62,662 nt of DNA, taken from NCBI GenBank assembly GCA_964374095.1, contig CAYJXJ010000004.1, forward strand, positions 1-62,662, in the 5' to 3' direction. The stretch is from an uncultured Elusimicrobia bacterium (GTDB lineage Bacteria > Elusimicrobiota > Elusimicrobia > UBA1565 > UBA9628). Position 1 is the stretch's first letter, and the number at the start of each line of letters is the position of its first letter. The notes under the pieces were generated by a model, which was not told the DNA's origin, made no database searches, and worked only from the letters and a program-made list of their open reading frames with translations. Positions 5,822-62,564 of the stretch are shown piece after piece. A program made the translations under genes and the position numbers.

Positions 5822-5838
5822 CCCCATTTTCTATTTTC
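5765..5838 (+). terminator. perfect 29-bp-stem / 3-nt-loop hairpin followed by a T-rich tract (candidate intrinsic terminator or palindromic element)
   Basis: 5765-5793 is the exact reverse complement of 5797-5825 (checked base by base). Followed by ATTTTCTATTTTCT. AT-richer than its surroundings. Confidence 0.5.
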
Positions 5839-5850
5839 TATACTGTGGGT

Positions 5851-32708: not shown

Positions 32709-32733
32709 TGGCCCTCCGCTACTTGATACATAC

Positions 32734-32762
32734 ATGATAATATATTATTAAGTTATTATCAA
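32734..32762 (-). promoter_or_regulatory. sigma70 promoter of the AlbA_2 gene (TTGATA-17-TATCAT)
   Basis: Read on the minus strand: -35 at 32762-32757, -10 at 32739-32734. Very AT-rich context. The -10 covers the first in-frame ATG (32735), which favours ATG 32708 as the start. Confidence 0.5.
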
Positions 32763-46583: not shown

Positions 46584-47746
46584 GACGATGTCTCCGCGGC
46601 GGACGCACGCGCCGCCCGAGCGACCGCGCGCATATCCTCCGTCTCCAAATGCGTGCCGCAGGGAAGGGCCACGCCGCAATCGCTGATCCCGACGGCGGCC
46701 GGGAAAGCGCCCGCATCATAGCCGTACTTCAAGCGATAGTAGGACAGGCGCGGCACGGGTTGGGGGTAGTAGATGCTGGTGCCGACGCCGAGGGCGTTCA
46801 AGCGCGCGATGAAATCATTGCGGCGTGAGGCCAACGGGCCCTCCAGGACAATACAAAGACAATAGGGGCTATTCTCGTGGCCCGGCACGGCCGAATCCAA
46901 CACCCGGACGCTGGGAAAGTCGGCGAGCGCTTGTTTAAGCGTCAGGAAGTTCGCCCGCCGACGGCTTAAATTCTCCCCAATACGCGCCAACTGGGAACGG
47001 CCGAGCGCCGCCGACATCTCGCTCATGCGGTAATTGAGGCCCAGCGTGGGGACATCGTAGAAGCCCGGGACCGAGCGCTCCGCGTAGCTGCGGTCCACGC
47101 CGAAGGCCCGCAGGCGCGCCACGGCCTCGGCCACGGGTTTGTGCCGGGAGACGAACATGCCGCCTTCTCCGGTCGTGATGTGCTTGGCGGGATAGAACGA
47201 GAAGCACCCGGCGTCGCCCCAAAGGCCCACGTGGCGGCCGTCGATGCGGGCCCCCAGGGCGATGGCGCAATCTTCTATGACCCTCAGTCCACGCCGCTCG
47301 GCAACCTTCATGATTCGGGGCATGTCGCAGGGAAATCCCACGAAGTGGACGACGGCGATGGCCTTGGTTTTGGGGGTAACGGCTGTTTCAACGGTTTCGG
47401 CCGAAACGTTTCCAGTCGCGGGGTCGCAGTCGACGAAGACGGGACGGGCGCCGGCCCACTCAACGGCGTGGGCCGTCGCGGCGTGGGTCTGCGCCGGGAC
47501 GATCACCTCGTCGCCGGGGCCGATCCCGAAGTGCAGGGTGGCCGCGTGCAGGGCGCCCATGCAGGAGCTCATGGTCACGGAGTTGGCCCCCTCGCCGAGG
47601 AAGGCCGAAAACTCGGCTTCGAAGGCCTGGCACTCCGGTCCGTGCGTGAGGACGTGCCCCGAGAGCACGCGCTGCACCGCGGCGCGATCAGCGTCGGTGA
47701 TCCACGGCCGCGCGAAGGGGATGTCACGTGTCTTGGCGTCGGTCAT
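46580..47746 (-). CDS. DegT/DnrJ/EryC1/StrS-family sugar aminotransferase (third copy)
   Basis: IPFARPWITDAD, FSFYPAKHITTGEGG (PLP-lysine region). Confidence 0.9.
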   Translation of the reverse strand: MTDAKTRDIPFARPWITDADRAAVQRVLSGHVLTHGPECQAFEAEFSAFLGEGANSVTMSSCMGALHAATLHFGIGPGDEVIVPAQTHAATAHAVEWAGARPVFVDCDPATGNVSAETVETAVTPKTKAIAVVHFVGFPCDMPRIMKVAERRGLRVIEDCAIALGARIDGRHVGLWGDAGCFSFYPAKHITTGEGGMFVSRHKPVAEAVARLRAFGVDRSYAERSVPGFYDVPTLGLNYRMSEMSAALGRSQLARIGENLSRRRANFLTLKQALADFPSVRVLDSAVPGHENSPYCLCIVLEGPLASRRNDFIARLNALGVGTSIYYPQPVPRLSYYRLKYGYDAGAFPAAVGISDCGVALPCGTHLETEDMRAVARAARASAAETSS

Positions 47747-48753
47747 GGATACTCCACCGGAACCCAGGCGCCGCCCTCACGGGCGGCGTCGGCGGCCAAG
47801 CATACGGCGACCGCCTCGAATTCCCGACGCGCCTGCGGCTCGGGGTCCCGCCCCTCGAGTATTCCGCGGACGAAGTCCGGTATGAGGACCCCTTTGTCCG
47901 CGGGTTGGGCCGCAATGTTTAGCGTCTCGACGCGGGGAGAACCGTCGCGGCCCCAGTGCAGCCGCGCGTCGCGGTCATCGAGGATGAAGGAGCCTTTGGT
48001 CCCGAAGACCCGGACGACATGCTGGTGGGGGTGCACGCAGCCGAAGTTGGCCGTGACGCGCCCGACCAGACCGGACTTGAAGCGGAAGGTCGCCGCGGCG
48101 AAGTCGTCGTAGCGGAAGGCCGTTCCCCGGGTGGAAATGCGGCCTCCCGCGGCCATGACGGCCTCGGGCTTCTGACCGGAGAGCCCCAGCATCAAGTCCA
48201 CGAGGTGAATCCCGCCTCCCTGCATCACCGAGTAGTCCGTCACGTCTTTGCGCCAGCCCCCCACGATCTTCTCCAGCCGGCCGTAGAGGTAGTCGCCGTC
48301 GAACGCGTAAAGCTCGCCGAGCCGGCCCGAACTAATCGCCTCGTCGAGCCACCGGAACAGCGGCGCGCCCCGCAGCGCCAGGTTCGAAGCCAGGTGCCGC
48401 CCGCTCTTGCGCCGGGCCGCGTGCAGGGTCTTGAGTTCCAGGCGGCTGCGGCAGAGGGGCTTCTCAACGAAAACGTGCTTGCCCGCCTTCAGGGCGGCCA
48501 GGGCCTGTCCGAAGTGCGCGTCGTCATAGGAAGCGATCGAGACGATCGAGACCTCCGGGTCATCGAGGATGGCGTCAAAATCGCGGGCCGCGCGCGCCCC
48601 ATCGAGTGAGCCGGAGAGGCCCTTGGCCTTCTGGGGGGCGAGATCGTAAAGCCACAGCACCCGGCAGCCGCTCGCGGCGAAGGCCCGGGCGTGGGCCTCG
48701 CCCACGCCCAGCCCCGCGACGGCCACGCCCAAGGTGCGGCTCTTGGTCCTCAT
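47743..48753 (-). CDS. Gfo/Idh/MocA-family oxidoreductase (WbpB-like position next to the aminotransferase)
   Basis: LGVAVAGLGVGEAHA Rossmann motif, FVEKPL. ATG 48753 overlaps the upstream stop (ATGA). The ORF-track start 49143 is a run-on. Confidence 0.85.
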   Translation of the reverse strand: MRTKSRTLGVAVAGLGVGEAHARAFAASGCRVLWLYDLAPQKAKGLSGSLDGARAARDFDAILDDPEVSIVSIASYDDAHFGQALAALKAGKHVFVEKPLCRSRLELKTLHAARRKSGRHLASNLALRGAPLFRWLDEAISSGRLGELYAFDGDYLYGRLEKIVGGWRKDVTDYSVMQGGGIHLVDLMLGLSGQKPEAVMAAGGRISTRGTAFRYDDFAAATFRFKSGLVGRVTANFGCVHPHQHVVRVFGTKGSFILDDRDARLHWGRDGSPRVETLNIAAQPADKGVLIPDFVRGILEGRDPEPQARREFEAVAVCLAADAAREGGAWVPVEYP

Positions 48754-49439
48754 GGCCGCACCGGGGCCGGGGCCGGGAACCTCGGCAGTTTGGAATCGTC
48801 CGGATACTCCGCCTCCAGCCGCGCGAGATCTCCCGGCGCGGCAATGTCCAGGTGACGGCGCGCCAGGGCGGGATTCCCCGAAGCCACGTTGGCGATCCGG
48901 AAGCGCTTGGGGTTGTTGTAGTAGAACAAGGTCACGTGCTCGCGCTCCGAAGCCGTGAGGCTCTCGGAGGCGAGCGCGCGGAATGTCCCGGACTCCAGCA
49001 ATTCCGCGCTCTGGCCCTTGGGAAAAGTCCGCGGAAACACGTTGGTGACGATATCGACGTCCCGGCGGCCGGCGTAGCCGAGCATCGCCGTGACGACCCC
49101 GGGGTCGAGGAGGGGGCTGTCGGCGCAGATGCGCAGCAGCCACCCGCAGGGATGCGCCTTGAGACAGGCTTGGAACCGGGCGAAGACGTCGTCGCGCTCG
49201 CCCCGAAAAACCGCCAGCCCGAGCTCGGCGGCATAGGCGGCCAGGGGATCATCGGAGGCGTCCGAACTCGTGGCCAGGACGATGTCCCGGCGCGGGACGG
49301 CGCCGGCCACCCGGTCGACCATGTGCCAGAGCACGGGCCGGCCGCGGAAGGGCGCCAGGACCTTGCCCGGAAAGCGCTTGGAGCTCATGCGGGCCTGGAT
49401 GAAGGCGCGGATCGTCGGGGAGGACGGCTGTTTGTTCAA
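48750..49439 (-). CDS. cytidylyltransferase (SpsF/PseF-type, CTP_transf_3)
   Basis: IRAFIQARMSSKRFPGKVL N-terminal motif, ICADSPLLDP. Start taken as TTG 49439, because the first ATG would cut the conserved N-terminal motif. Confidence 0.75.
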   Translation of the reverse strand: MNKQPSSPTIRAFIQARMSSKRFPGKVLAPFRGRPVLWHMVDRVAGAVPRRDIVLATSSDASDDPLAAYAAELGLAVFRGERDDVFARFQACLKAHPCGWLLRICADSPLLDPGVVTAMLGYAGRRDVDIVTNVFPRTFPKGQSAELLESGTFRALASESLTASEREHVTLFYYNNPKRFRIANVASGNPALARRHLDIAAPGDLARLEAEYPDDSKLPRFPAPAPVRP

Positions 49440-49500
49440 AGTTTGAACATTATAGGAAGGCTGCCGCCGTAGCGTCAATCTGATCCGGCGCCCGGGCAGG

Positions 49501-50214
49501 TCACGGCGCGGTGGAAAGGCACGCCAGATTGGTGCGCAGCCCCGGCAGGCCCAGGCGCAAAAGGCGGTTGCGGCGTCCCGGCGGGAACAGCGCCAGAAAT
49601 TCCCCTGCGTAGAGGGGATTGAGGTTCTCCTCTCGGGAGAGGGAGTCGAAGCCCAGGCCGCGGATCGCGCGCCTCCAGGCCGGCGGCGGCAGCCAGTGCA
49701 GAAACGGCAGGAAAGTGTGCAGCTCGACCGGAAAGGCGCGGTTGGGCGTCGTGAACAGCACACCCCGGCAGACGCGGCACACCTCGCGGACCAGATCGGC
49801 CTGCTGGGCCCGCGTTCCCGCGTGCTCGACCACCGCGTTGCACAGCCCGAAATCGAAGTGGCGGTCCGGGAGGGGGATGTTCCTCAGGTCGCACTCGAGG
49901 AATGTCATCCCGGGGAAGGTCTGCGGATACCAGTCCGCTGCCTCCGCCGCACGGCCCAGAACCGTGAGACGCTCGCGGTGCGGGTAGCGGGCCTCAAAGA
50001 AGTAATGGACCGGATGGTCGCGGTGCCCGGTCACCCCGAAATCGGCGACGCGGGACTCGGGCCCCGGATGGAACTCAAGCATGAAGAGTTCGAAGACTCT
50101 CCGCCGCACGGCCAGGCCCAGGGCGTCGCGCGCCCGCGAGAGGATGCCGAGAGGCGCCGAATAATCAAGCGCCACCGACCCTCCCGCGGTACGGGGGCGC
50201 GTAGCGAAAAACAA
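49501..50214 (-). CDS. class I SAM-dependent methyltransferase-like protein
   Basis: VADFGVTG (degenerate motif I), FDFGLCNAVVEHA, TTPNRAFPVELHT. Start uncertain: TTG 50214, GTG 50175 or ATG 50082. Confidence 0.6.
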   Translation of the reverse strand: MFFATRPRTAGGSVALDYSAPLGILSRARDALGLAVRRRVFELFMLEFHPGPESRVADFGVTGHRDHPVHYFFEARYPHRERLTVLGRAAEAADWYPQTFPGMTFLECDLRNIPLPDRHFDFGLCNAVVEHAGTRAQQADLVREVCRVCRGVLFTTPNRAFPVELHTFLPFLHWLPPPAWRRAIRGLGFDSLSREENLNPLYAGEFLALFPPGRRNRLLRLGLPGLRTNLACLSTAP

Positions 50215-52204
50215 TGCGGCGCGCCGGGCGGTCCAGGAATACCCCCCAGAACACCCCGTAGGCCGGGACGATGCGGACCTCGCGGCCGTCCGCGCGGCAG
50301 GTCCAGTACGGGCTGTAGGAGTTCGTGACCACGAGCAGGCCCGGGCCCTTCATGGACGCCGCGAACTCGATGCGGTCGGGCTCGTAATTCTCCAGGCGGA
50401 CCTCGCCCTCAGCCAGGGCTGCGGCCCCGGCAATCCCCCCCTCCACCCAGACGGTGCGGCGCAGCTCGGCGACCGACGCCTCGGCGGCACGCTGGAGGGC
50501 CGCCTCCGGGCCGGGCGCCGGCTCCAGCCTCCGGGCGAAGTAGGCGCGCGGCAGCGCCGCCTGGTTCTCATAGAGGTAGAGATAGGTCTTGCCGGTGAAA
50601 TTCTCGCGCAGGCGCAGGCGCGCGCGCTCCCACCGGTCCATCTCCCGCCAGGGCCTCTGGACCAGGAGCGGCCGGAGGTCGGGATGGAGGAGCGGATGCC
50701 GGGAGACCAGGTAGCGCGTGTTGGCCAAGGAGAGCAGGTTCATCCGGTAGTAGCGTTCCAGGGGGACCCCGCCCGGGAAGGGGTCCACGGTCTCGAAGAA
50801 GAGATAGATCCGGCTCCCCCACCTATTGAAGTACTCGTCGTACTTGGGCTCCCGGCGGGTCAACGGCTCGATGACCTTGGACCAGAAGCGGTGGTATCGG
50901 AGCGGATAAACCTGAATGTAGCCGTCCACGGATTCCAGGCCGTAGACGTTGGCGTAAGCCGGATGGAGCCCGTGGGTGAAGGTGGCGACCCGGAACGTTC
51001 CCGGCGGGTGGCGGGCGGCCAAGTCCCTGAGGACGGGGCTGGCATAGTTGGCGTGATAACCTCCCTGGAAGAACCAATCCTCGGCGCTGGAGACCTTTTC
51101 GCGGAGCGTCCCCCAGGCCAACACCGCGGCCCAGAGCGCCGCGGCAACGCGCGGCCGCGGCAGGGCGTCCACGGCGCAGCCTCCGAGAAGCGCGGCAAAG
51201 AACGGCGCGGTCTTCTCCAGCCGAGTCACCTGCAGCCCGCGCAAGAAGCCGATGTGCGCGGATGCCGCGGCCCGCCCCGCGTCCAGGAGCCAGGCCCCGA
51301 CCAGGCAAAACAACAGCCCCGCCCACAACGCGCCCCGAGCCCGGCCTCGGAGGAGGCCCGGGAGGGCCAAGGCGAGGACCGGCCAGTAGTCCATGAGGGA
51401 CGCGAGCGACTTACCGAGCGCCTCCCACCCAACCGGGTTCGACGCCGGCCACATGGTCCGCTGCGACAAGGGCGCCTGGAGCATCTGGGCGAGCACGGTA
51501 GTACGGTGCGGCAGGATGGAGCCGGCGCAGAAGACGAGGAATACCGCCGCCGTCCGCCACGAGACCGCCCGGCGCGCCGCTGCGAGCCAGAAGGCGAGGG
51601 CGATGAGCTGGAAGGGCAGGGTCTGGGCCGCGGTCGACGCGACCGAGTTGCAAAGACCCAGGCCCAGGGCCAGGGCCAAGGCTCCCGTGCCGCGCCTGCG
51701 GCCGAGCTCCTCGAGGTACCAGGCATAGACCGGCAGGAGCAAGAAGGAGCCCTGATTGCCGGAGGCGCCGTCGGCCGTAACCGCGAAGGCGGCCCCGGCG
51801 AGCGCGGCGGCCAGCGGGGACAGCCCGAGCCTCTCCCGGGCGATTCGCATCACGAACAGGCAGCCGAGAAAGGCCTGGCCGAGACGCAGAGTCCCCAGCG
51901 CCAGCCAGGCCGGGAAGAGGAAATTCAGGATCGAGGTGAGGTGGCGCTCGGCGAGGCCCGTGCCGAGCCGGTCGATCCCGCAGGCGATATGGGGGAGCCA
52001 GTCGTGGCTGCGGGCCTGGTAGGCCGCCGACACCAGCAGGATGTCGCGGGGAGCCATGTGGTCTCCCGTGTCGTGGTTGCGGACGTGCGAGAACGGGCCC
52101 AGAGCCACCCATTCCAGCGAGAGCCAAAGGGCCACGGCCGCGCTGAACCGGGCGTCGCCGCCAAGCCGCCACCCCCGCCCGGGCCGGACGCCCGGCGCCG
52201 TCAT
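50165..52204 (-). CDS. YfhO-like GT-C membrane glycosyltransferase, paralogue 1
   Basis: About 12 hydrophobic segments, then a soluble C-terminal domain ending NSYSPYWTCRADGREVRIVPAYGVFWGVFLDRPARRIVFRYAPPY, the C-terminal pattern of YfhO-type proteins. Confidence 0.8.
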   Translation of the reverse strand: MTAPGVRPGRGWRLGGDARFSAAVALWLSLEWVALGPFSHVRNHDTGDHMAPRDILLVSAAYQARSHDWLPHIACGIDRLGTGLAERHLTSILNFLFPAWLALGTLRLGQAFLGCLFVMRIARERLGLSPLAAALAGAAFAVTADGASGNQGSFLLLPVYAWYLEELGRRRGTGALALALGLGLCNSVASTAAQTLPFQLIALAFWLAAARRAVSWRTAAVFLVFCAGSILPHRTTVLAQMLQAPLSQRTMWPASNPVGWEALGKSLASLMDYWPVLALALPGLLRGRARGALWAGLLFCLVGAWLLDAGRAAASAHIGFLRGLQVTRLEKTAPFFAALLGGCAVDALPRPRVAAALWAAVLAWGTLREKVSSAEDWFFQGGYHANYASPVLRDLAARHPPGTFRVATFTHGLHPAYANVYGLESVDGYIQVYPLRYHRFWSKVIEPLTRREPKYDEYFNRWGSRIYLFFETVDPFPGGVPLERYYRMNLLSLANTRYLVSRHPLLHPDLRPLLVQRPWREMDRWERARLRLRENFTGKTYLYLYENQAALPRAYFARRLEPAPGPEAALQRAAEASVAELRRTVWVEGGIAGAAALAEGEVRLENYEPDRIEFAASMKGPGLLVVTNSYSPYWTCRADGREVRIVPAYGVFWGVFLDRPARRIVFRYAPPYRGRVGGA

Positions 52205-52713
52205 TCCGGCAGGCCTAGGAACCGGCGGTGCCAGCGCACCAGGACGAGGGGCGCCCGCAAGCTCTCCCGCGCCAGGAGGTAGCGGGCGCCGTCGAAGGTC
52301 AGGTGCCCGGAGGCGACGAGTTTCTCAAGCCTCCTGTCCAGAATGAGGGAGGCGTTGTAGCGGTCCAGCACCTCGGCCACCGTGGCCGCCCCGCCGCGGT
52401 CCTCAACCTCGTAGAGCAGGCGCACGCGCAACGCCGCCTCGCCCATGCCGAAGATCCAGGTGCCGTAGTTGAACACGAGCAGGCCGTAGAGGAGGCAGGC
52501 CGCGGCGATCAGGAGCCAGGCGTCCCGGGGATCGGCCGGCCGGACGGCCGGGCGCGCGGAACAAATGACGCAGACCGCCAGGCCCAGCAGAATCGACGCC
52601 GCCAGCGACGCCGTCATGTGGCGGGCGCGGTCCAGTCTAAAGAAGGCCACGTGCAGGGCCAGGAACACGGCGAAGGCGGAGAAGACCGCTCTTAGGAGGC
52701 CGGCGTCCCACAC
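52201..52713 (-). CDS. 170-aa membrane protein: three hydrophobic helices + wHTH-like tail
   Basis: GTG 52713. The stop overlaps the YfhO-like start (ATGA). Paralogue of the 52718-53212 product. Confidence 0.65.
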   Translation of the reverse strand: MWDAGLLRAVFSAFAVFLALHVAFFRLDRARHMTASLAASILLGLAVCVICSARPAVRPADPRDAWLLIAAACLLYGLLVFNYGTWIFGMGEAALRVRLLYEVEDRGGAATVAEVLDRYNASLILDRRLEKLVASGHLTFDGARYLLARESLRAPLVLVRWHRRFLGLPE

Positions 52714-52717
52714 GTCT

Positions 52718-53212
52718 TTAGCCGCCCACTCCCAGGCCGAGCACAGCCCGGTAGGCGAGTATGCCGCGAACCACCAGGCGGCCCCGGGGAGTGATCACCA
52801 GGCGCTCCCCGTCGCGCCGCAGGTGGCCTCCATCGACGAGCTCCTGGATTCGGGGCAGGAGAAACTCCGCGTCGGAGAACGCGGCGGCCAGCTCCGCGCT
52901 CGCGGCCCGCCGGTCAGGACGGTCGAGCAGGAGCCTCACGATGATCAAAGACGGGCTCTGGTAACGGAGCACATTGCAGGTGGAGACGTACCAGAGCGCG
53001 AGCATGAGGTAGAGCAGGCCCGCGGTGACGGGCAAGGAGACCTCATGGCGCCCGCCCGGGCGGGCCAGCCAGACGGCCAGCGGAGCCAGCCACAGCAGGC
53101 CCAGGCCGATCACGGGCTTGAGCTCCACGCCGCGCGGACCCCGGCGCATCCAGGCCGCGTGGGAGAGGGCCATGGCGGCGAAGGCGGCCAGGGCCGCGCC
53201 CAGCTCACTCAT
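52718..53212 (-). CDS. 164-aa membrane protein: three hydrophobic helices + wHTH-like tail
   Basis: ATG 53212 overlaps the GT2 stop (ATGA). The ORF-track start 53449 is a run-on inside the GT2 gene. Confidence 0.65.
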   Translation of the reverse strand: MSELGAALAAFAAMALSHAAWMRRGPRGVELKPVIGLGLLWLAPLAVWLARPGGRHEVSLPVTAGLLYLMLALWYVSTCNVLRYQSPSLIIVRLLLDRPDRRAASAELAAAFSDAEFLLPRIQELVDGGHLRRDGERLVITPRGRLVVRGILAYRAVLGLGVGG

Positions 53213-53961
53213 CGCCGCGGGGGAGGGAGTTCCGGCGTCATGCGGAAGGCGATCTTCTCCAGCCTCCTCAGGAGGATGTGGAAGAGGGTGTTGGCGACCG
53301 CCAGGAGGTTGCCCACGACCAGGGCCTTGGAGACCCCCTGGGTGCGCTCGCCGTTGTGGATGGGAACTTCGATCACCCGGATCCCCTCGTCGAGCAGGCG
53401 GCAGAGGAGCTCGGCCTGGTAGCCGAAGCCCCGGGTCTCCGCGAACCACATGCGCACGTTCTCGGTGCGGTGCAGGACCGGACCGTTGTAGTAGCGCAGC
53501 CGGTGGCCGCTGAATATGTTGACCATGAGGGTGAACAGGCGCGAGAGTAGCCGGCGCCCTCGGCTCCGGGAGTCCGTGGCCGCGTACGGGACGACGGCGT
53601 CTGCCTCGCCGAGGCGCGACACGATCGCCGCGATCGACTCCGCGGGCTCGACCGCGTCGCCGTTGACCAGCATGAAGTGCTCGCCCCTGGCGCGATGAGA
53701 CGCGATGAAGTAGTTCCGCCCCAGCCCGCGGCGGAAGGGGTTTCGGACCACGGACACCGGCACATCGCGATACCGCGCCGCGCGGCCCTCCACCTCGGCC
53801 ACGGAGCCGTCGGTGGAACCGTCATCCACCACCAGAATCTCATAGCGGCGGCCGCGGCCGGCCATCACGGAAACGACCGTGTCGATGGCCCGCCCCACGT
53901 TCCCCTCCTCGTTGAGGCAGGGGATGAAGAAGGTGATCGAGACCGCGCTCAACTCTGCCAT
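53209..53961 (-). CDS. GT2 glycosyltransferase, DPM1/GtrB-like catalytic domain without clear TM anchor
   Basis: FFIPCLNEE, VVDDGSTDGS, VNGDAVEP motifs. 250 aa. Only a weakly hydrophobic C-terminal helix. Confidence 0.85.
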   Translation of the reverse strand: MAELSAVSITFFIPCLNEEGNVGRAIDTVVSVMAGRGRRYEILVVDDGSTDGSVAEVEGRAARYRDVPVSVVRNPFRRGLGRNYFIASHRARGEHFMLVNGDAVEPAESIAAIVSRLGEADAVVPYAATDSRSRGRRLLSRLFTLMVNIFSGHRLRYYNGPVLHRTENVRMWFAETRGFGYQAELLCRLLDEGIRVIEVPIHNGERTQGVSKALVVGNLLAVANTLFHILLRRLEKIAFRMTPELPPPRR

Positions 53962-54000
53962 GGGATGCGGCGGAGATTATAGTATCGTGACCGACCCCGC

Positions 54001-54043
54001 CGCTACCAGCGCCAGGCCGCGCTGAAGGCGTGCCGGTCGCCGA
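54001..54043. repeat. left arm of a perfect 43-bp inverted repeat
   Basis: Exact reverse complement of 58369-58411. On the minus strand it encodes ..GDRHAFSAAWRW-stop. Confidence 0.9.
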
Positions 54044-54116
54044 GGTTCACGGAGGGGACGAAAAGGAAGGTCATTGTCCGGCTTCATCCAGCAAAGACAG
54101 GAGCGCCTGGATGGTC

Positions 54117-54467
54117 TCAAAGACGTCGCGGCAGCGAACGGCCCGCGGCGTTTTTGACCCGGCGGACGTAGCTGTGGGCAATGGGATTGCCCTTTGCGTC
54201 AATGCGATGCCTGAACCCTCGCTTCTCCAGAATTTTCTCGATGCGGGCGTACGCCTCGTCCGAGATGCCGGCGGCGTTCAAGGCAAGGTCTACATCCAAC
54301 GATCCGACATGCGGCTCATCCTTCGCGACGCCTTGCGTCAATAGAAATGGCACCCAGCCGCCGATGACGACAATGTCTTCGCGATAGGGGCCCAGGTAGG
54401 TCAACAGCTCGGCCAGGACCGAGAGAGCCGCCTGGGTTTCGTCCGTGGGGTATTCGCTCTTGTTCAT
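54117..54467 (-). CDS. nucleotidyltransferase-fold protein (AbiEii/MNT-like), short or truncated
   Basis: IVVIGGWVPFLL...GSLDVDLAL NTase motif. ATG 54467 overlaps the upstream stop (ATGA). Only 116 aa. Confidence 0.6.
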   Translation of the reverse strand: MNKSEYPTDETQAALSVLAELLTYLGPYREDIVVIGGWVPFLLTQGVAKDEPHVGSLDVDLALNAAGISDEAYARIEKILEKRGFRHRIDAKGNPIAHSYVRRVKNAAGRSLPRRL

Positions 54468-56041
54468 GAGGCCAGCCACTCGTGGACTTCTTCGGCTTTG
54501 AGTTTGATCTCATTGAAGCTTTCCGTGTAGGGGCTTGTCACGATTCCGAAAAGATCCTGGAACCGCTTGTTGGCCTCGTATCTTTGAGCCCGGTCCTCGG
54601 ACCACTTGGCCTCCAAGGCCGCCTTGAGCATTAAACCGTACTTAATCCAACCGTTATTGAACCACGTCCGCGTCCGCAGCTCCTCGACATCATGATCTAC
54701 CGGGAAGATGGAAATTGCTCCTTGAAGAAGGGTGCGATTCTGAGCGCGGAAAGCCGCTTCGAGCCTGGCCAGCCATAACTTGATGCGCAAGAAGTCCAGC
54801 TCCCGGTCCCTGTCCGCCGGGGACAAGGCGCCCGTCATTTCCATGGCCCTCCCTAGGGCATCCGCCGCAGCGGCCGCGTCATTGGATCGAAACAGGCGGG
54901 CGTCACCCTGATCGCGCAGGCGCAGGAACTCGTGGAGCTTCGCCTCCTGCTCGATGGTTCGCTCCCCCTGGACGGGCTGGATATTCTCTCGCAGGATGGG
55001 CTGGAGGCAGCGCTCCGCCAGCGCCTCCGCCTGCTCCTCGCCGCGGCCATGTGCGTTCTTCAAATCCACGTATAGTTGTACGTCCGAGACGATGTTCCGA
55101 TTCTGAACCCGCTGCCGCCTGAAGAAAACACCTTCGTCTTGGGCTGGAAAGATCAAGCAGTTCCCCCCGGAGGGAACTGCTTTAAGGTCAAGTTCCGAAG
55201 CGATGGATTCGAGCCCTCCCCGAACATACGCATGGAGCCTATTGGCCCGGACGAACGGCGCCCGGTATCGGGCGCCGGCGAATAGGGTCAAGGCGTACTG
55301 GAATCCTTTCTTGACGCTCAGCTCATCAAGACGCTGCTCGAACTGTTGCAACGGCTCGGAAGTATAGTACTCGGCGTGAGGCTTATCTCGCAAAGTTTCA
55401 GCCTTGACCCATTCAGCAAGGAGGGCCTGCCGATCCTTCAAGTAGCTGCGCCCAGCAATGAGCGTGACATAGGCGCCCCCCTGGAGACGCCGGACCACCC
55501 GGTTGACCAGGCCCAGGCTGGTCCCCGTTTCCTTGCTGAGCGCGAGCTGCCGCCAATCTTTGAGGGGCTGGCACAGCAGAGCGCGCACGATGCGCAATGA
55601 TTTGGGCGCGAACAAGCGCCGGCTTTCGCGGCGCGGCGCCGGGGGCTTGCCTTCCACTGACTTGGAAATCAGGATGGTCCGATAGCTGATCCAGCAGTTA
55701 CCGATCTCATCGAAGCAGCCGATGCCCGCTTGGCGACACAGTTGGGAGGCGCGCTGGCTTATGTAGGGGGCGAATAGGAGCGGGTAGACCTTCTTTTCCT
55801 CATCCCCCAACAGCTGAAGCTGTCCGATCAGTTCATAGACCCGGCGAGGTTCGGCGTTGGGCTTGGCATAGAGCCCAAGCTCCAACGGCAGTCCCTTGAG
55901 TTCGGTGCGGTAGATGATACTCCAGGTAGGGGCCTTCCCCCGCCCCGAAGCGGTACGGCGGCCGGTAGCGGAACGAGACCGTCCGGGCGGGCCTGTCCAG
56001 AGACACCCCCCAGCCGGACCGCTCATCATGACCGAGGGCAT
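54464..56041 (-). CDS. wHTH-containing hypothetical protein coupled to the NTase gene (AbiEi-like partner?)
   Basis: Central wHTH-like LALSKETGTSLGLVNRVVRRLQGG and VQLYVDLKNAHGRGEEQAEAL. Start set at ATG 56041 (56029/56026 are alternatives), because upstream codons of the ORF-track frame read through unrelated gene fragments. Confidence 0.5.
   Translation of the reverse strand: MPSVMMSGPAGGCLWTGPPGRSRSATGRRTASGRGKAPTWSIIYRTELKGLPLELGLYAKPNAEPRRVYELIGQLQLLGDEEKKVYPLLFAPYISQRASQLCRQAGIGCFDEIGNCWISYRTILISKSVEGKPPAPRRESRRLFAPKSLRIVRALLCQPLKDWRQLALSKETGTSLGLVNRVVRRLQGGAYVTLIAGRSYLKDRQALLAEWVKAETLRDKPHAEYYTSEPLQQFEQRLDELSVKKGFQYALTLFAGARYRAPFVRANRLHAYVRGGLESIASELDLKAVPSGGNCLIFPAQDEGVFFRRQRVQNRNIVSDVQLYVDLKNAHGRGEEQAEALAERCLQPILRENIQPVQGERTIEQEAKLHEFLRLRDQGDARLFRSNDAAAAADALGRAMEMTGALSPADRDRELDFLRIKLWLARLEAAFRAQNRTLLQGAISIFPVDHDVEELRTRTWFNNGWIKYGLMLKAALEAKWSEDRAQRYEANKRFQDLFGIVTSPYTESFNEIKLKAEEVHEWLAS
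55944..56013 (-). pseudogene. 3'-terminal fragment of a further YfhO-like gene
   Basis: 70 nt with 4 mismatches to 58438-58507. Encodes WGVSLDRPARTVSFRYRPPY. Confidence 0.6.
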
Positions 56042-56436
56042 GTGGCCGTCCCGTTTCTCGATGGCGAGCTTCTGGGTCTCGACCCGGCGGAGCTGGATGA
56101 GCTGGGGCGTGATGGCTTCCTTCTGCATGCGCAGGCCCTCGGCCTTGATCTTGATACGTTCCAGGTCGCGCTTGGCCTTCAGGGCATGCTGCTCGGCGAT
56201 CTGCCATTCAGCCCTTTGGGGTGATCGACCAGGGGCCTGCAGCGGCGGATTGCGGGAACAAAAGGGGTGGCCAGATCGTACCTGCGAGAGGGAGTACGCC
56301 TTGCTCGCAGGTATGAAGCATGCGTGCCTCTCTCGACCGCAGGTCCCCCCACGCGTCTCTACGCGCTCCGGCGCGCCTGGACCCGGCCCCCGCACCGCGA
56401 CCTGCGCTGAAGATTCTCTCCGGTCTTTCCTTTCTT

Positions 56437-56565
56437 GAGTGCGGCATTCCACGTTTCGGTGTCGTGCGATGCCTCTGCCGCCAGCGCGGCAACGATCTCT
56501 TCGTGCCCTACAACTGCAAGCGGCGCCTGGCATGTCCGAGTTGTGATTCAAAGCGCGCGGTAGTT
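56437..56565 (+). mobile_element. fragment of an IS91-family (Y2 transposase) zinc-binding domain
   Basis: ..RCLCRQRGNDLFVPYNCKRRLACPSCDSKRAV matches the C..C...SCK.R.CPSC..KR pattern. No transposase body follows. Confidence 0.4.
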
Positions 56566-56736
56566 GAGATTGAAGGAGCGGCTTTTAAGTCTGGCCGTGA
56601 AAGTTTAAATATACTTCCTATTGACAATCCAGAATTGTCGAGTTAAGCTATATTTAAACCGAATGGATTGGATGGTTTATATAAGACACTATTTGACAAT
56701 CCTCGATTTATATCTAGAGCTATAAATAAACCAGCT

Positions 56737-57534
56737 ATGGCCGACTCCACTCAGCACCAAGGTAAGCTTTCTGAACTCCTCGGCAAATGGCCGAAGGGAG
56801 CGGTTGTCGTTCAAGGTTGGCTCGACAAGCAAGGCATATCTCGCCAGCTTGCGGACCGCTATTGCCGCTTCCATTGGATGCGCCGCATAGGACGCGGGGC
56901 CTATACGCGGCTCAAGGAAAGCGTGGAGTGGATGGGCGGACTCTACGCGATGCAGCAGCAGCTCGGCCTTCCGATTCACGCTGGAGCCAAGACGGCGCTT
57001 GAGCTTCAGGGCTATGCCCACTACATACCCATGCGCAAAGGCGGGACACAGTGGCTGTTCGGCCCTCCGAAGGTGAAGCCGCCGGCGTGGTTCTTGAAGC
57101 ACGATTGGGAAGATCGGCTGCGCTATGTGGCGACCAATCTCTTCCAGACGAGCCCGGAACTGGGTCTGACCAAGAAGCGGATAGAGGACTACTCGATAAG
57201 GCTCTCGGCTCCCGAGCGCGCGATGCTGGAGTTGCTTGACCAACTGCCGAAGAGCCAATCCTTCGAGGAGGCCCGACAGCTGATGGAAGGCCTCGCCACC
57301 CTGCGGCCCGAGCTCGTGCAGCAGCTTCTGGAGAACTGCCGCTCGATAAAGGCTAAGCGGCTCTTTTTGCTTCTCGCCGAGATATGCGGACATCGGTGGC
57401 TTTCCGGGGTAAACTTGAAGAGCGTGGACCTCGGCAAAGGGAAACGCCTCATGGTCAAGGGCGGGCACTTCGATCAAAAGTTTCAGATAAGCACCCCATA
57501 CGAGCGGCCCGACAAGGAACAGATACCGGCATGA
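56737..57534 (+). CDS. AbiEi-family type IV toxin-antitoxin antitoxin / transcriptional regulator
   Basis: LLGKWPKGAVVVQGWLDKQGISRQLADRYCRFHWMRRIGRGAYT N-terminal wHTH pattern. ERAMLELL. The stop overlaps the toxin start (ATGA). Confidence 0.8.
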   Translation: MADSTQHQGKLSELLGKWPKGAVVVQGWLDKQGISRQLADRYCRFHWMRRIGRGAYTRLKESVEWMGGLYAMQQQLGLPIHAGAKTALELQGYAHYIPMRKGGTQWLFGPPKVKPPAWFLKHDWEDRLRYVATNLFQTSPELGLTKKRIEDYSIRLSAPERAMLELLDQLPKSQSFEEARQLMEGLATLRPELVQQLLENCRSIKAKRLFLLLAEICGHRWLSGVNLKSVDLGKGKRLMVKGGHFDQKFQISTPYERPDKEQIPA

Positions 57535-58409
57535 ACCCGGCCTATGTCGAGCAGACGCGGCTCATGCTCCGCGTCTTGCCATTCGTGGCCAAAGAGGATT
57601 GTTTCGCGCTGAAGGGCGGCACGGCGATCAACTTCTTCGTGCGCGACCTGCCGAGACTCTCCGTGGATATCGACCTGGTTTATTTGCCGATCAACTCCAG
57701 GCAAGAAGCTCTCTCGGGGATCAGCGCGGCGCTCAAGAGGATCAAGGCGGACGCGCTCCGCGGCCTGGGGCAAGGGTTCACCATCCAAGAGGGCGTCGCC
57801 GGAGGCATGACCTCCAAGCTGTTCGTCAAAGGGCCGGGTGGAACGGTGAAAGTCGAGCCGAACTTCGTCCTTCGTGGGACGGTGAGCGCTCCGGCAAAGC
57901 GCGCCGCATCGAAGAAGGTCGTCGCGACATTCGACCTGTCCGTCTCCATCATGACGGCCGCCAACACCGACCTGTACGGCGGCAAGATATGCGCCGCATT
58001 AGATCGACAACACCCGCGCGATCTCTTCGACATCGAGCCGCTCATCTGGCGGCAAGTCCTCGTGCCGAGTTCCATCACCTTCGCCAAGCTCATCCGGGAG
58101 GAGATCGGCGGAGCCGAGGCCGCTACCGGGGCGGTGGACGCGGGAGTGATGGCCGACCTCGGTGAGCCGCTGGGAGCGCCGGTCACCCTCGGCGCCGGCC
58201 TCCAGAACCTGGGAGGCAGGCTGCGGTACCAGTCCTCCAGCGAGGAACTGCCCCTGGCCTGGCGGCTGGGAGCGGCCTGGAAACCCTTCGACGGCGCCGC
58301 CCTGGCCGCGGACATAAGCCGGTTCAATAGAGACGAGCTCCCGGCGCACGCCGGTCTCGAATACGTCTTCGGCGACCGGCACGCCTTCAGCGCGGCCTGG
58401 CGCTGGTAG
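57531..58409 (+). CDS. AbiEii/AbiGii-family nucleotidyltransferase toxin, C-terminally replaced by an OMP-like beta-barrel fragment (chimeric, possibly inactive)
   Basis: FALKGGTAINFF...LSVDIDLVY...GGKICAALDRQHPRDLFDI NTase signature up to ~58040. From ~58140 the sequence reads LGAGLQNLGG..LPLAWRLGAAW..GLEYVFGDRHAFSAAWRW, with a terminal aromatic residue. Confidence 0.7.
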   Translation: MNPAYVEQTRLMLRVLPFVAKEDCFALKGGTAINFFVRDLPRLSVDIDLVYLPINSRQEALSGISAALKRIKADALRGLGQGFTIQEGVAGGMTSKLFVKGPGGTVKVEPNFVLRGTVSAPAKRAASKKVVATFDLSVSIMTAANTDLYGGKICAALDRQHPRDLFDIEPLIWRQVLVPSSITFAKLIREEIGGAEAATGAVDAGVMADLGEPLGAPVTLGAGLQNLGGRLRYQSSSEELPLAWRLGAAWKPFDGAALAADISRFNRDELPAHAGLEYVFGDRHAFSAAWRW

Positions 58410-58411
58410 CG
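58369..58411. repeat. right arm of the perfect 43-bp inverted repeat
   Basis: Exact reverse complement of 54001-54043. Confidence 0.9.
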
Positions 58412-60484
58412 TCAGGGGCCCTCCGGGCCTTGACTCGACCCGAGGCGGTACGGCGGCCGGTAGCGGAAGGCGACCGTCCGCGCGGGCCTGTCCAGAGACA
58501 CCCCCCAGAAGGTCCCGTAGGCGGGCACGATCTCGACCTCCCGCCCGTCCGCCCAGCACCGCCAGAACGGGCTGTAGCTGTTGCTCACGACCAGAAACCC
58601 CGGACCCTCCATGCGCGTCGCCAGGTCCAGGCGGTCCGGCTCGTAGCGGGTGAACTCGGCCGCGCCCGCGGCCAAGCTCCGGCCGACGCCGCCGGAGGAC
58701 GCCTTCTCGAGATAGGCCGCCTCCCGCAGCGCCCCCGGACCGGCCCCGGCCATGGCCTCCAGCAGGCTCCCGCGGTCTGCGAAGACCTGGATCGCTCGAA
58801 CGAAGTACGCGCGGGGCAGGACCGTCTTGTTCTCGTACAGGTAGAAGTAGGTCTTGCCGGTGAAATTCTCACGGACCCGGAGCCGGACCCGCTCCCACCG
58901 CGTCATGGACTCCCAGGGCCGCTGGCCCAGGATCTCGAGTGCGTCCGGATGGATGAGGGGATGGCGCGAGATCAAGTACCGCACGTTGGCCAAGGACAGC
59001 AGGTTCATCCGGGCGAAGGCGTCGATGGGGACGCCCCCCGGCAGGGAGCGGACGTCCCCGGGCCAGAAGAGATAGAGACGGTTCCCAATCGGGACGAAGG
59101 CCTCGGATCGTTGTTCCGGATCCAGCCGGGCCTGGGACCGGGCGTTATAATCGATGACCCTGTCCCAAAAGCGTTCATAGGCGGCTGGAAACAGATTCAG
59201 GATGCCGTCGGCCGCTTCGAGCCCATGGGCCATGGCGTAGGCCGGAACTAAGCCGTGCGTGAAGCTGGCCACCCGGAAGGGCGGCAGCGGCGTTCGCGCG
59301 GCCAGCTCCTTGAGGACGGGGCTCGAGTAGTTGGCGCGAAAGCCCCCTTGGAAGAACCAGTCCCGCAGGTTGTCGGCCTTGCGGACGAGGGATTGCCCCA
59401 GGAGGAGGAGCGCCCACAAGGCCAGGACCAGCCCTCGCCGCGGGAGCTGGTCGAGGCCCGAGGCCGTCAGCAGAAGCGCGAAGAGGATGCCCATGAAGGA
59501 CAGCCGCTGGAGGATCATGAAGCCGCCCACCCCCGGAACAGCCCCGGACAGGGCGATCCGCGCCCCTTCCAAGGCCGCTCCTCCCAGGGCGCACACGAGG
59601 AGCGCCCACAAGAGCTCCCACCGGACGCGGCCGTAGCGAGCGCCCAGCGCCGCGAACACGAGCGGGAGCCCGACGACGCGGTGCGGGAAAAAGACCCATG
59701 AGAGATGCTCGGCGAGGGACCGGCTCAGCGGCGGGGTCCCATGGCTCGTCCGGTTGGACCAACTCGCGTGCAGCGCCATGGCCCACGCCGTCTGCAGGTG
59801 CGGGAGCAGCGACACGGCCGCGAAAGCGGCGAACACCCAGGCCATCTTCCACGTCCAAAGACCGCGGACCGCGGCCAGCCACAGCGCCGCGCCGAGAAGT
59901 CCGAAAGGCAATGACATCGCCACGGAGGAGGTCATGGCGTTAACCAGCCCCAAACCCGCGGCCCAGACCAGGGGCTGGGACCGGCGCCCGCGGGCGATCT
60001 CCTCGAGCTGCCACGCCATGAACGGCAGCAAGAGCCAGCCGCCCCGGAAGCCGGGATCATTTGGAACGGACAGGCAGAAAGCGGCCCCCGCGGCCAGGGA
60101 GCACCAGGGCGAAAGCCGGAGCCGCTCGCGCGCCAGGAGATAGGCGTAGTAGGCGCCCAGGAAGTACTGGAGCAGGTGGAACACGGCGTAGGCGGCCCAG
60201 ATCGGGAGCGCCAGGCCGAGCAGGGAGGTGCTGTGGAGGTGCGAGATGTCATTGGCCAGGCGATCCACGCCGCAGGCCATGTGGGGGAGCCAGTGATGGG
60301 AGCTTGCCCGGTAGCCCGCGGAGGCCAGGAGGATGTCCCGAGGGACGGTGTGGTCCGCGGTGTCGTAGTGCCTGATCATCGAGGCGGGGCCCAGGAGGAG
60401 CCCCTCGAGGCTCAGCCACAGGGCGATGGCGCCGCAGAGGCGCAGGGCACGGGGGTCGCCGTTGGAGAGCCGGAGGACACTCAT
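58412..60484 (-). CDS. YfhO-like GT-C membrane glycosyltransferase, paralogue 2
   Basis: Same architecture as 50165-52204. The C-terminal ~200 codons are identical to paralogue 3. Confidence 0.85.
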   Translation of the reverse strand: MSVLRLSNGDPRALRLCGAIALWLSLEGLLLGPASMIRHYDTADHTVPRDILLASAGYRASSHHWLPHMACGVDRLANDISHLHSTSLLGLALPIWAAYAVFHLLQYFLGAYYAYLLARERLRLSPWCSLAAGAAFCLSVPNDPGFRGGWLLLPFMAWQLEEIARGRRSQPLVWAAGLGLVNAMTSSVAMSLPFGLLGAALWLAAVRGLWTWKMAWVFAAFAAVSLLPHLQTAWAMALHASWSNRTSHGTPPLSRSLAEHLSWVFFPHRVVGLPLVFAALGARYGRVRWELLWALLVCALGGAALEGARIALSGAVPGVGGFMILQRLSFMGILFALLLTASGLDQLPRRGLVLALWALLLLGQSLVRKADNLRDWFFQGGFRANYSSPVLKELAARTPLPPFRVASFTHGLVPAYAMAHGLEAADGILNLFPAAYERFWDRVIDYNARSQARLDPEQRSEAFVPIGNRLYLFWPGDVRSLPGGVPIDAFARMNLLSLANVRYLISRHPLIHPDALEILGQRPWESMTRWERVRLRVRENFTGKTYFYLYENKTVLPRAYFVRAIQVFADRGSLLEAMAGAGPGALREAAYLEKASSGGVGRSLAAGAAEFTRYEPDRLDLATRMEGPGFLVVSNSYSPFWRCWADGREVEIVPAYGTFWGVSLDRPARTVAFRYRPPYRLGSSQGPEGP
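58452..59056. repeat. 605-bp perfect direct repeat, copy 1
   Basis: Compared line by line with 60532-61136; no mismatch seen. Offset exactly 2080 bp. Confidence 0.9.
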
Positions 60485-60500: not shown

Positions 60501-62564
60501 TCACGGGCCTCGATCCGAGTCGCGGGCGTATGGCGGCCGGTAGCGGAAGGCGACCGTCCGCGCGGGCCTGTCCAGAGACACCCCCCAGAAGGTCCCGTAG
60601 GCGGGCACGATCTCGACCTCCCGCCCGTCCGCCCAGCACCGCCAGAACGGGCTGTAGCTGTTGCTCACGACCAGAAACCCCGGACCCTCCATGCGCGTCG
60701 CCAGGTCCAGGCGGTCCGGCTCGTAGCGGGTGAACTCGGCCGCGCCCGCGGCCAAGCTCCGGCCGACGCCGCCGGAGGACGCCTTCTCGAGATAGGCCGC
60801 CTCCCGCAGCGCCCCCGGACCGGCCCCGGCCATGGCCTCCAGCAGGCTCCCGCGGTCTGCGAAGACCTGGATCGCTCGAACGAAGTACGCGCGGGGCAGG
60901 ACCGTCTTGTTCTCGTACAGGTAGAAGTAGGTCTTGCCGGTGAAATTCTCACGGACCCGGAGCCGGACCCGCTCCCACCGCGTCATGGACTCCCAGGGCC
61001 GCTGGCCCAGGATCTCGAGTGCGTCCGGATGGATGAGGGGATGGCGCGAGATCAAGTACCGCACGTTGGCCAAGGACAGCAGGTTCATCCGGGCGAAGGC
61101 GTCGATGGGGACGCCCCCCGGCAGGGAGCGGACGTCTTTCACCGAAGGGAAATAGATTTGGTTTCCGAAGGCCTTGAAGCCCTCCGCTTGTCTTTCATCC
61201 AGACGAGCCTCCGGGTCGATGACCTTGCCCCAGAAGAGCTGGTAGGACTCCGGGTAAAGATTGAGGTAGCCGTCAACCGCCTCGAGCCCATGGGCCATGG
61301 CATAGGCCGGATGAAAACCGTGCGGCAAGCTCGCCACCCGGAAGGGCTGCAGCGGCGTGCGCGCCGCCAACTCCTTGAGGACGGGGCTTGAGAAGTTGGC
61401 GCGGTAGCCCCCTTGGAAGAACCAGTCCCGCAGGTTCCCGGCCTTGCGACTCGTCGACACCCCACACAGGATCAGAGCCCACAGGGCCAGCACCAACCCG
61501 CGGCGCGGGAGTCGGTCCGCTCCGGAGGCCGTCATGAAGATCGCGTAGGGGACCGACAGGGCGAGGAAGCGGGCATGACTCAACGCGCCGAGCGCCGGCA
61601 CGGCGCCGGAGTAATTCGATTGCGCCCAATCGAGCGTCTCCCCGCCCAGTACGAGCAGAAGAAACGCCGCCCAAAGTTTCCAGCGCACGCGGCCGTACCA
61701 CGCGCCCGCGACCGCGATGAGCAGCGGAACGCCCACGGCGTGACCCCGCCCGAAGAGCCAGGGCATGAGGCCGGCGAAACCCTCTCCGACGGCCGTCGGA
61801 GGGCGCGCCCAATCCGCCCGATGCGACCAGTCCAGGTGAGTCGTGATGGCCAGAGCCGTCTGCACGTGCGGTGTCAGCGACACGGCCGCGAAGATGGCGA
61901 ACACCCACGCCGTCCTCCAAGTCCAAAGGCTTCGGATGAAGACCAGCCAGAATGCCGCTCCCAGAAGTCCGTAAGGCAAAGACATCGCGACGGAGGAGGC
62001 CAGACCGTTGAGCAGTCCCAACCCGGCGGCCCAGACCACGGGGCGAGACCGCCGCCCGCAAACGACCTCCTCGAGGTGCCAGGCCATGAACGGGACCAGG
62101 AGCCAGCAGCCCTGCATCCCCGGGGCGCCTTCCACGGCGACGCAGAAGGCGCCCCCGGCGGTCAGGGCGGACCATGGCGAGAGTTCGAGCCTCTCCCGGG
62201 CCAATAGGCAGGCGTAGTACGACCCCAGGAAAAATTGGAGCAAGTGGAAGACGGCGTATGCGCCCCAGACTGGGAGGAACCGGCAGAGCAAGGCCGTGAT
62301 GTGGAGGTGCGACATGTCGTTGGCCAGCCGGTCGACGCCGCAGGCCATGTGGGGCACCCAGCCGTGGGAGGTCGCGCGGTAATCCGAGGACGCCAGCAGG
62401 ATATCCCTGGGGACGGTGTGGTTGCCGACATCATGGACGCGAACCATGGAGGCGGGGCCCAGGATAAGCCCGCCCAGGCTCAGCCATAAGGCGATGACGC
62501 AACACGCAGGCCCGGCCCAGGAGCGGCCATCGGCGGACTCTAGACCTTGCCGCAGGGAGGACAC
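60501..62564 (-). CDS. YfhO-like GT-C membrane glycosyltransferase, paralogue 3
   Basis: GTG 62564. The N-terminus MSSLR.. parallels MSVLR.. of paralogue 2. The TM region is diverged and the C-terminal domain identical. Confidence 0.85.
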   Translation of the reverse strand: MSSLRQGLESADGRSWAGPACCVIALWLSLGGLILGPASMVRVHDVGNHTVPRDILLASSDYRATSHGWVPHMACGVDRLANDMSHLHITALLCRFLPVWGAYAVFHLLQFFLGSYYACLLARERLELSPWSALTAGGAFCVAVEGAPGMQGCWLLVPFMAWHLEEVVCGRRSRPVVWAAGLGLLNGLASSVAMSLPYGLLGAAFWLVFIRSLWTWRTAWVFAIFAAVSLTPHVQTALAITTHLDWSHRADWARPPTAVGEGFAGLMPWLFGRGHAVGVPLLIAVAGAWYGRVRWKLWAAFLLLVLGGETLDWAQSNYSGAVPALGALSHARFLALSVPYAIFMTASGADRLPRRGLVLALWALILCGVSTSRKAGNLRDWFFQGGYRANFSSPVLKELAARTPLQPFRVASLPHGFHPAYAMAHGLEAVDGYLNLYPESYQLFWGKVIDPEARLDERQAEGFKAFGNQIYFPSVKDVRSLPGGVPIDAFARMNLLSLANVRYLISRHPLIHPDALEILGQRPWESMTRWERVRLRVRENFTGKTYFYLYENKTVLPRAYFVRAIQVFADRGSLLEAMAGAGPGALREAAYLEKASSGGVGRSLAAGAAEFTRYEPDRLDLATRMEGPGFLVVSNSYSPFWRCWADGREVEIVPAYGTFWGVSLDRPARTVAFRYRPPYARDSDRGP
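60532..61136. repeat. 605-bp perfect direct repeat, copy 2
   Basis: Identical to 58452-59056. Confidence 0.9.

Follow-up and report, generated by a model that had tools for sequence, protein, structure and literature searches.

A perfect 43-bp inverted repeat in an Elusimicrobiota polysaccharide cluster is probably the scar of a destroyed PorV/PorQ-family gene

Results

A short, exact inverted repeat encloses a 4.3-kb island of foreign and decayed genes in contig CAYJXJ010000004.1 (assembly GCA_964374095.1), of which we analysed a stretch of 62,662 nucleotides, here called the window. The whole window forms a single sugar-nucleotide/glycosyltransferase cluster of about 70% GC from an Elusimicrobiota-like genome. 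We regard the repeat as probably a passive scar, consisting of two copies of the 3′ end of a resident gene for a PorV/PorQ-family outer membrane protein (OMP) that has been destroyed. The arms and the genes on either side of them are as follows.

54001–54043, minus strand: left arm; last 12 codons, stop codon and 2 nt of a PorV/PorQ-family gene, (L)GDRHAFSAAWRW and stop (exact reverse complement, translation, 19.8 bits)
58369–58411, plus strand: right arm; the same 43 bp, with the inner edge joined non-natively to an internal OMP fragment
53209–53961, minus strand: left flank, GT2 glycosyltransferase gene (Pfam Glycos_transf_2), first gene of a GT2/164-aa/170-aa/DUF6044 operon
58412–60484, minus strand: right flank, DUF6044 paralogue YfhO-2 (Pfam DUF6044)

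Geometry of the repeat

The two arms are exact reverse complements over 43 of 43 positions, as an earlier note made from the letters of this DNA had claimed, and are separated by 4325 nt. A repeat search extended the pair to 49 nt at 96% identity (53995–54043 and 58369–58417, two mismatches). By our own estimate, which takes a per-base match chance of about 0.29 at 70% GC, some 1e-14 such pairs would be expected by chance in 62.7 kb. The window contains four exact repeats of at least 30 nt, the arm pair being one of them and two others lying in the adjacent genes YfhO-2 and YfhO-3, and no arm 14-mer has a third copy in the window. No direct target-site duplication is present outside the arms, the flanks reading ...CCCCGC up to the left arm and TCAGGG... 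from the end of the right arm.

Each arm is composed of 2 nt of a Leu or Phe codon, 12 full codons, the stop codon and 2 nt beyond it, rather than the 13 codons first counted. The right arm closes an open reading frame (ORF) that is a chimera of AbiEii and OMP sequence, with its TAG at 58407–58409; the minus-strand stop of YfhO-2 follows at 58412–58414, leaving a gap of 2 nt between the convergent stops, an arrangement that had been described correctly. On the other side, the minus-strand end of the left arm lies 42 nt upstream of the GT2 ATG at 53961. The earlier placement of the left arm beside this start codon holds, whereas the TATAAT noted there is a lone hexamer: a promoter scan found no −35/−10 pair on the minus strand at the left arm. 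No promoter pair or terminator was detected by the scan at the arms, and the region 53000–59500 has no match in Rfam.

An 18-nt dyad, CAGCGC-N6-GCGCTG, is present in each arm (54009–54026 and 58386–58403). It is possibly a small hairpin or a recombinase-type core; the genome background here is 70% GC.

Origin of the arms

To identify the protein family, we took the 98 residues that precede the right-arm stop as query for an exhaustive profile search, which returned about 90 relatives of 300–320 residues. These are named as PorV/PorQ-family or UPF0164 beta-barrels (Pfam, NCBIfam), most of the named members come from metagenome-assembled genomes (MAGs) of Elusimicrobia, and their C-termini follow the pattern …DYAFVPFGDLGxxHRFSLxxxF/W. 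The arm peptide, (L/F)GDRHAFSAAWRW followed by the stop, scores 19.8 bits in the PorV/PorQ C-terminal register of a position-specific scoring matrix (PSSM), with its final residue as the terminal aromatic of the family at the last model position. On this profile evidence the arms are the true 3′ end of a PorV/PorQ-family gene plus 2 nt, which bears out the suggestion that both derive from the end of one OMP-like gene with an aromatic C-terminus. Two further pieces of the same family adjoin the arms.

54044–54074, minus strand: the left arm continues here into about 10 more native C-terminal codons, MTFLFVPSVN; OMP homology stops here; GC at third codon positions (GC3) 0.96
58083–58368, plus strand: internal PorV/PorQ fragment of about 95–100 codons (the earlier figure was about 75); hidden Markov model (HMM) positions ~151–243, NCBIfam PorV_fam positions 130–207; GC3 0.85

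The junctions of the two copies with these pieces differ. We built a family HMM from 44 full-length relatives and aligned both copies to it. The left copy, on the minus strand, reads MTFLFVPSVN-LGDRHAFSAAWRW and stop, and within it LFVPSVNLGDRHAFSAAWRW aligns without a gap to HMM positions 280–299, the end of the model. The 9 residues upstream of the left arm fall within the top 0.23% of all 9-mers of the window in the PSSM (P=0.0023), whereas in the C-terminal register the corresponding 9 residues at the right arm reach −22 bits, under the null mean of −18. The right copy matches HMM positions 151 to ~243 (101.5 bits, 58083–58368) and then jumps directly to the last 13 positions. In relatives of 307–309 residues the matching stretch ends at residue ~251–253, so that the inner edge of the right arm coincides with a loss of about 43 residues. 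As judged by these alignments, the left copy still runs on from its native upstream codons, whereas the junction at the right copy is illegitimate.

Against the NCBIfam model NF033709 the internal fragment scores 34.4 bits, below the cut-off of 90 and over positions 130–207 of 326 only, compared with 166 bits over positions 2–324 for a full-length relative (P0104); it is therefore a pseudogene fragment of the family and not a member protein. The window contains no other OMP pieces and no intact OMP paralogue. Nor was a close OMP paralogue found in protein collections, where a word-based search was empty and the next-best match of the exhaustive search was 51% identical. To judge from what survives, some 100 internal and 23 terminal codons in two pieces of opposite orientation, the OMP gene is dead. 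The remains resemble the PorV/PorQ barrels of NF033709 in the internal fragment, the C-terminal signature and the terminal aromatic, the nearest being Elusimicrobia proteins of ~300–310 residues. They differ in being two inverted pieces and in lacking the usual neighbour, a surface protein of more than 3000 residues.

Because the two pieces stand in opposite orientation at the ends of the segment, at least one inversion-type or inverted-duplication event must lie behind them. A different origin would be a pair of independent PorV/PorQ paralogues on opposite strands, of which one preceded GT2 and the other converged on YfhO-2; each would have been eroded separately, and gene conversion would have preserved or produced the identity of the last 43 bp. 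The locus does contain paralogue arrays and a conversion tract of 605 bp (described below), and identity produced in this way would naturally stop at the deletion junction of the right copy and just past the stop codon. However, family C-termini vary at almost every position, and a 43-nt identity that includes 2 nt past the stop would still require very recent copying. In the relatives, moreover, the gene is single and follows a giant surface-protein gene instead of being paired in sugar clusters, and the 2-nt gap between the convergent stops resembles a rearrangement junction rather than a native gene end. We consider two paralogues an unlikely source of the arms.

Contents of the island

The DNA between the arms carries the following features.

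54117–54467, minus strand: truncated nucleotidyltransferase-like toxin of 116 aa, partner of AbiEi_2 (PADLOC PDC-M21B positions 10–83/234; weak Pfam NTP_transf_8; GC 0.60)
54464–55924, minus strand: AbiEi_2-domain antitoxin-like gene (Pfam AbiEi_2, 5.4e-10; GC3 0.74)
55929–56012, minus strand: relic, the last 28 codons of a fourth DUF6044 (YfhO-like) paralogue (tblastn to YfhO-2 residues 660–687, 82%; GC3 0.93)
56013–56430: stretch without assigned identity (without plasmid match; weak coiled-coil PHROG match)
56431–56562, plus strand: fragment of the N-terminal zinc-binding domain of an IS91-family transposase, 44 residues (Pfam Zn_Tnp_IS91, 2.2e-06, positions 26–68/90)
56603–56659: AT-rich imperfect palindrome with 26-nt arms and a 5-nt gap, containing TTGACA, directly upstream of AbiEi_3
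56737–57534, plus strand: AbiEi_3 antitoxin gene (Pfam AbiEi_3_N, AbiEi_3; PADLOC AbiEi, 7.5e-69)
57531–58061, plus strand: AbiEii toxin gene (Pfam AbiEii positions 1–166/238; PADLOC AbiEii positions 2–163/290)

Two toxin–antitoxin (TA) modules of AbiE type lie in the segment. The AbiEi_3/AbiEii pair overlaps by ATGA, and the palindrome in front of it is probably the operator/promoter of an autoregulated AbiEi_3 antitoxin. The start of AbiEi_3 is annotated at 56878, although the domain match favours an earlier start near 56737. Roughly the first 56% of AbiEii remains, and its reading frame continues in frame into the OMP fragment. A complete toxin is absent from both modules, with 163/290 and 83/234 profile positions covered, and both are probably non-functional relics. 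They share with known AbiE (type IV) modules the adjacent pairing, here twice over, of AbiEi_3 with AbiEii and of AbiEi_2 with nucleotidyltransferase domains, and differ from them in that both toxins are truncated and one is fused to an OMP fragment. When the island was compared with plasmids, only a conserved AbiEii stretch of 120–190 nt was matched. Two public gene calls in this region would mislead annotators: a 292-aa ‘AbiEii’ is the toxin–OMP chimera, and a 554-aa ‘AbiEi_2’ stretches to 56128 over unrelated DNA, crossing the DUF6044 relic in another frame.

The relic of the fourth DUF6044 paralogue lies on the same strand as the intact paralogues and forms a direct repeat with 58425–58515. 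Its DNA is 90% identical to the 3′ end of YfhO-2, and the junction with the AbiEi_2 module falls exactly where the relic has lost its stop codon. The IS91 fragment breaks off just before the AT-rich promoter region of AbiEi_3.

The composition of the segment separates host from foreign DNA. Its GC content is 0.48–0.65 against about 0.70 outside, in agreement with the AT-richer island of TA modules and gene fragments that had been noted; the low GC does not extend to the arms, which like the OMP pieces next to them are host-like in composition. GC3 is 0.85–0.96 in the OMP pieces, 0.93 in the DUF6044 relic and 0.86–0.91 in host genes, compared with 0.66–0.81 in the TA modules and the IS91 piece. 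The repeat thus belongs to the host DNA that surrounds the foreign remnants, and does not mark where a foreign element ends.

This bears on the possibility that the 4.4 kb are a transposon-like element with 43-bp terminal inverted repeats. Inverted repeats at the ends, a lower-GC interior and a transposase fragment inside would all fit such an element. Against it, there is no target-site duplication and no intact transposase, only the 44-residue IS91 piece, and the arms with their adjoining pieces are beta-barrel coding sequence of host composition. The IS91 family is not known to end in terminal inverted repeats. Neither the window nor plasmids yielded another copy, nor did genome and metagenome collections with the OMP fragment or arm peptide as query. 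A transposon of this kind is highly improbable. An integrated island with attL and attR sites offers a closer likeness in one respect, since here too the repeat is exactly a gene's 3′ end, stop codon and 2 further nt included, and encloses foreign, lower-GC DNA that carries TA genes. In contrast to the present arms, att repeats are direct; there is also no integrase here, and the target gene is destroyed instead of being restored.

Orientation in other assemblies

An NCBI MAG contig, CAMTXP010000031.1 (GCA_947085715.1), has the identical layout and orientation over positions 47531–58592 of the window and runs unbroken through both arms. It ends 141 nt into the 605-bp repeat that begins beyond the right arm, from which we infer an assembly k near 141; k-mers of that length would have spanned each arm, and no branching would have arisen there. 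The window carries T at 52900 where GCA_947085715.1 and the Logan assembly of ERR3478686 both have G. This is the single difference over 11 kb and marks the window as a separate assembly. The orientation presented here is the majority form in at least one sample.

The Logan k=31 unitigs of ERR3478686 stop 30 nt into the left arm: L001 reaches 54030 from outside and L012 begins at 54014 on the inside. A true 43-bp repeat must produce such breaks at k=31, and they are therefore uninformative on orientation. These breaks, exactly 30 nt into the left arm from both sides, could also be taken, with the fact that the source is evidently a MAG, as a hint of an artefact, in which the metagenome assembler joined the wrong sequences across a short repeat. 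But assemblers do not invent k-mers, so all four junctions must exist in reads, and the independent contig from GCA_947085715.1 is identical and was built with k well above 43. An artefact is accordingly very hard to credit.

L012 (54014–56120) stops at 56120, within the island, where the window has no repeat of at least 30 nt, and the AbiEi_3 gene is on no Logan contig of ERR3478686. In that sample, coverage of the right half of the island may be low, or the sequence there may vary. No paper mentioning ERR3478686 was found.

Recombination at the locus

A perfect direct repeat of 605 bp (58452–59056 = 60532–61136) is shared by the 3′ parts of YfhO-2 and YfhO-3 and starts 41 bp from the right arm. 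In an identity profile the two genes are 55–80% identical outside this tract, and identity over 605 bp amid such divergence indicates a recent gene-conversion tract. Read from its repeats, the locus is one that recombines.

Searches for the state of the locus before the rearrangement covered genome contigs, where neither the OMP fragment nor DUF6044 alignment queries found an ancestral or empty site, and metagenome contigs, which held nothing with the OMP fragment or a degenerate pattern of the arm peptide, the arm DNA itself not being among the queries. For the DUF6044 proteins, the nearest relatives come from Elusimicrobia MAGs and reach 46% identity; their genes lie in clusters that are ordered differently. 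The nearest OMP relatives are 52% identical; their loci are not syntenic, and the giant surface-protein neighbour that they have is absent from the window.

Discussion

We favour a history in which the arms are remnants of a lost gene and have no function of their own. The polysaccharide cluster has more than once acquired foreign DNA, in the form of two AbiE-type TA modules and an IS91-family element, and has recombined with itself. Insertions and the deletions that came with them, whose outcome is visible in the surviving fragments, removed most of the OMP gene and the body of the fourth DUF6044 paralogue and truncated both toxins. The present structure shows that the arms are copies, recently made, of one gene end and that every gene concerned is broken. 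A recent duplicative rearrangement would then have placed the last 43 bp of the OMP gene in two places in opposite orientation, which is the structure now present, with one copy remaining on its native upstream codons and the other pasted onto an internal piece beside the stop of YfhO-2. Two routes could lead there. One would be an inversion with a staggered break across the 43 bp at the OMP stop. The other would begin with an inverted duplication that took in more of the OMP 3′ region and was afterwards cut back by the TA insertions and a deletion.

Inversions with staggered breaks are known to leave inverted duplications at their breakpoints, as described in Drosophila (Ranz et al. 2007, PLoS Biol, PMC1885836). 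In that model a stretch that was once single-copy ends up as identical inverted copies at both ends of a segment, as may have happened here; one copy keeps its native neighbour while the other gains a new one, and neither a prior repeat nor a recombinase is necessary. In the window, the left copy keeps its native inner neighbour, and the outer neighbour of the right copy is the YfhO-2 stop, 2 nt away. The likeness has limits: the model comes from Drosophila chromosomes and not from bacteria, and undoing a single step of this kind would not restore an intact gene here. The state before a staggered break would still have the OMP pieces in opposite orientation, and earlier events would therefore be needed.

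Three simpler schemes were tried and rejected. With a single inversion splitting one gene, neither orientation would give a contiguous gene, as the right junction lacks some 43 residues. If a staggered-break inversion had its stagger at the left, the left arm would no longer adjoin the native codons upstream of it. A single tandem duplication giving rise to both the DUF6044 relic and the second arm is unlikely, since relic and YfhO-2 have 5/27 mismatches outside the conversion tract and the arms 0/43.

Several points weigh against a passive scar. Neither a close relative nor an empty site was found, so the sequence of steps and the direction in which the OMP gene first lay are inferred, and every path that we could construct from a single intact gene needs at least two to three illegitimate events. 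The arms differ at 0 of 43 positions, compared with 5 of 27 in the DUF6044 relic outside the conversion tract, a contrast that regular recombination between the arms would maintain equally well. The layout is also symmetric in a way that chance alone does not explain, with two divergent TA modules and truncated toxins that each run into an OMP piece ending in an arm. Finally, a minority of flipped molecules may exist alongside the assembled orientation.

A rival reading is an active invertible segment, in which the 4.3 kb would flip at a useful frequency by means of an outside recombinase or homologous recombination and so exchange the TA-module promoter that reads into the GT2/DUF6044 operon for the one that reads antisense into YfhO-2. 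The perfect inverted repeat adjoins the upstream side of the gene that opens a surface-glycan operon; the two TA operons point away from each other, one toward each arm, with no terminator-like site between them and the flanks, and the identity of the arms is perfect where the DUF6044 relic has diverged. Polysaccharide loci elsewhere are run by invertible promoters with an unlinked recombinase, as with Mpi in Bacteroides. On the other hand, gene calls and Pfam scans revealed no recombinase or integrase in the 62.7-kb window, the arms are pseudogene coding sequence with one illegitimate inner edge, and no further copy of an arm occurs in the window. One orientation is found in two assemblies, one of them with a contig of the k=141 type that is unbroken, no ORF would be changed by a flip, and a convincing promoter at an arm is absent. 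Active inversion is, on this balance, rather improbable. More specifically, the segment could be a large inverton of a new type in Elusimicrobiota, turned over through its arms by an unlinked recombinase or by host recombination; the flip would alternate between two divergent, autoregulated AbiE antitoxin promoters as drivers of the GT2/DUF6044 operon and give phase-variable glycan modification. Repeated exchange would in that event keep the arms perfectly identical; we think this version very unlikely.

Known switches make the same comparison possible. Hin/Gin/Cin, fimS, the promoter invertons of Bacteroides and the shufflons likewise have inverted repeats of tens of bp beside surface genes and a geometry suited to promoter swapping, but the present segment differs from them in having no invertase in 62 kb, arms of pseudogene sequence, one orientation and no clear ON/OFF states. 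The feature is probably an ordinary, if tidy, scar of rearrangement; the polysaccharide locus that holds it is variable, and the phylum has been poorly sampled.

Of the earlier proposal of a past or ongoing inversion, the first half stands, in the form of at least one past inversion-type or inverted-duplication event, while an ongoing inversion has no support, given the lack of a recombinase in 62 kb and the single orientation of two assemblies. The accompanying remark that no intact recombinase lies inside the segment agrees with the gene content, in which the only relevant piece is the 44-residue IS91 zinc-domain fragment. A flip that attached the OMP fragment to the left arm would reconstitute nothing, as identical arms give the same two junctions and the same ORFs. 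Since the arms are identical and no annotated or family-supported gene spans a whole arm, flipping leaves ORFs and proteins unchanged.

If the arms are a passive scar, the repeat should have no dedicated machinery and should allow at most a very rare RecA-type inversion of the 4.3-kb segment. A length of 43 bp is near the lower limit for RecA-dependent exchange and makes a poor substrate for homologous recombination, and spontaneous flipping would thus be very rare. The significance of a scar would be local: it documents the decay and remodelling of a surface-polysaccharide cluster in a barely sampled lineage of Elusimicrobiota, by uptake of TA cassettes and IS91-type DNA, loss of a PorV/PorQ barrel and of a DUF6044 paralogue, and gene conversion. 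The segment would gain interest as a regulatory device only if both orientations turned up in reads.

Some further observations concern the relatives and the rest of the window. In the nearest OMP relatives (~52% identical) the gene immediately upstream of the PorV/PorQ gene encodes a surface protein longer than 3000 residues that carries Big/PKD/NHL domains (L005 1–8924; L007 1–8834), and this adjacency suggests a dedicated pairing of cargo and barrel in Elusimicrobia. A gene with SLFN_AlbA_2 and HATPase_c_4 domains is present inside the sugar cluster of the window (30987–32735, minus strand), and a gene of the same kind is found in a polysaccharide cluster of the MAG with the 46% identical DUF6044 protein (L010 6420–7814). 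At the junction of a GT2 gene (4853–5821) and a GT1 gene (5818–6885), a 30-nt sequence is repeated exactly at an offset of 33 nt (5764–5793 = 5797–5826).

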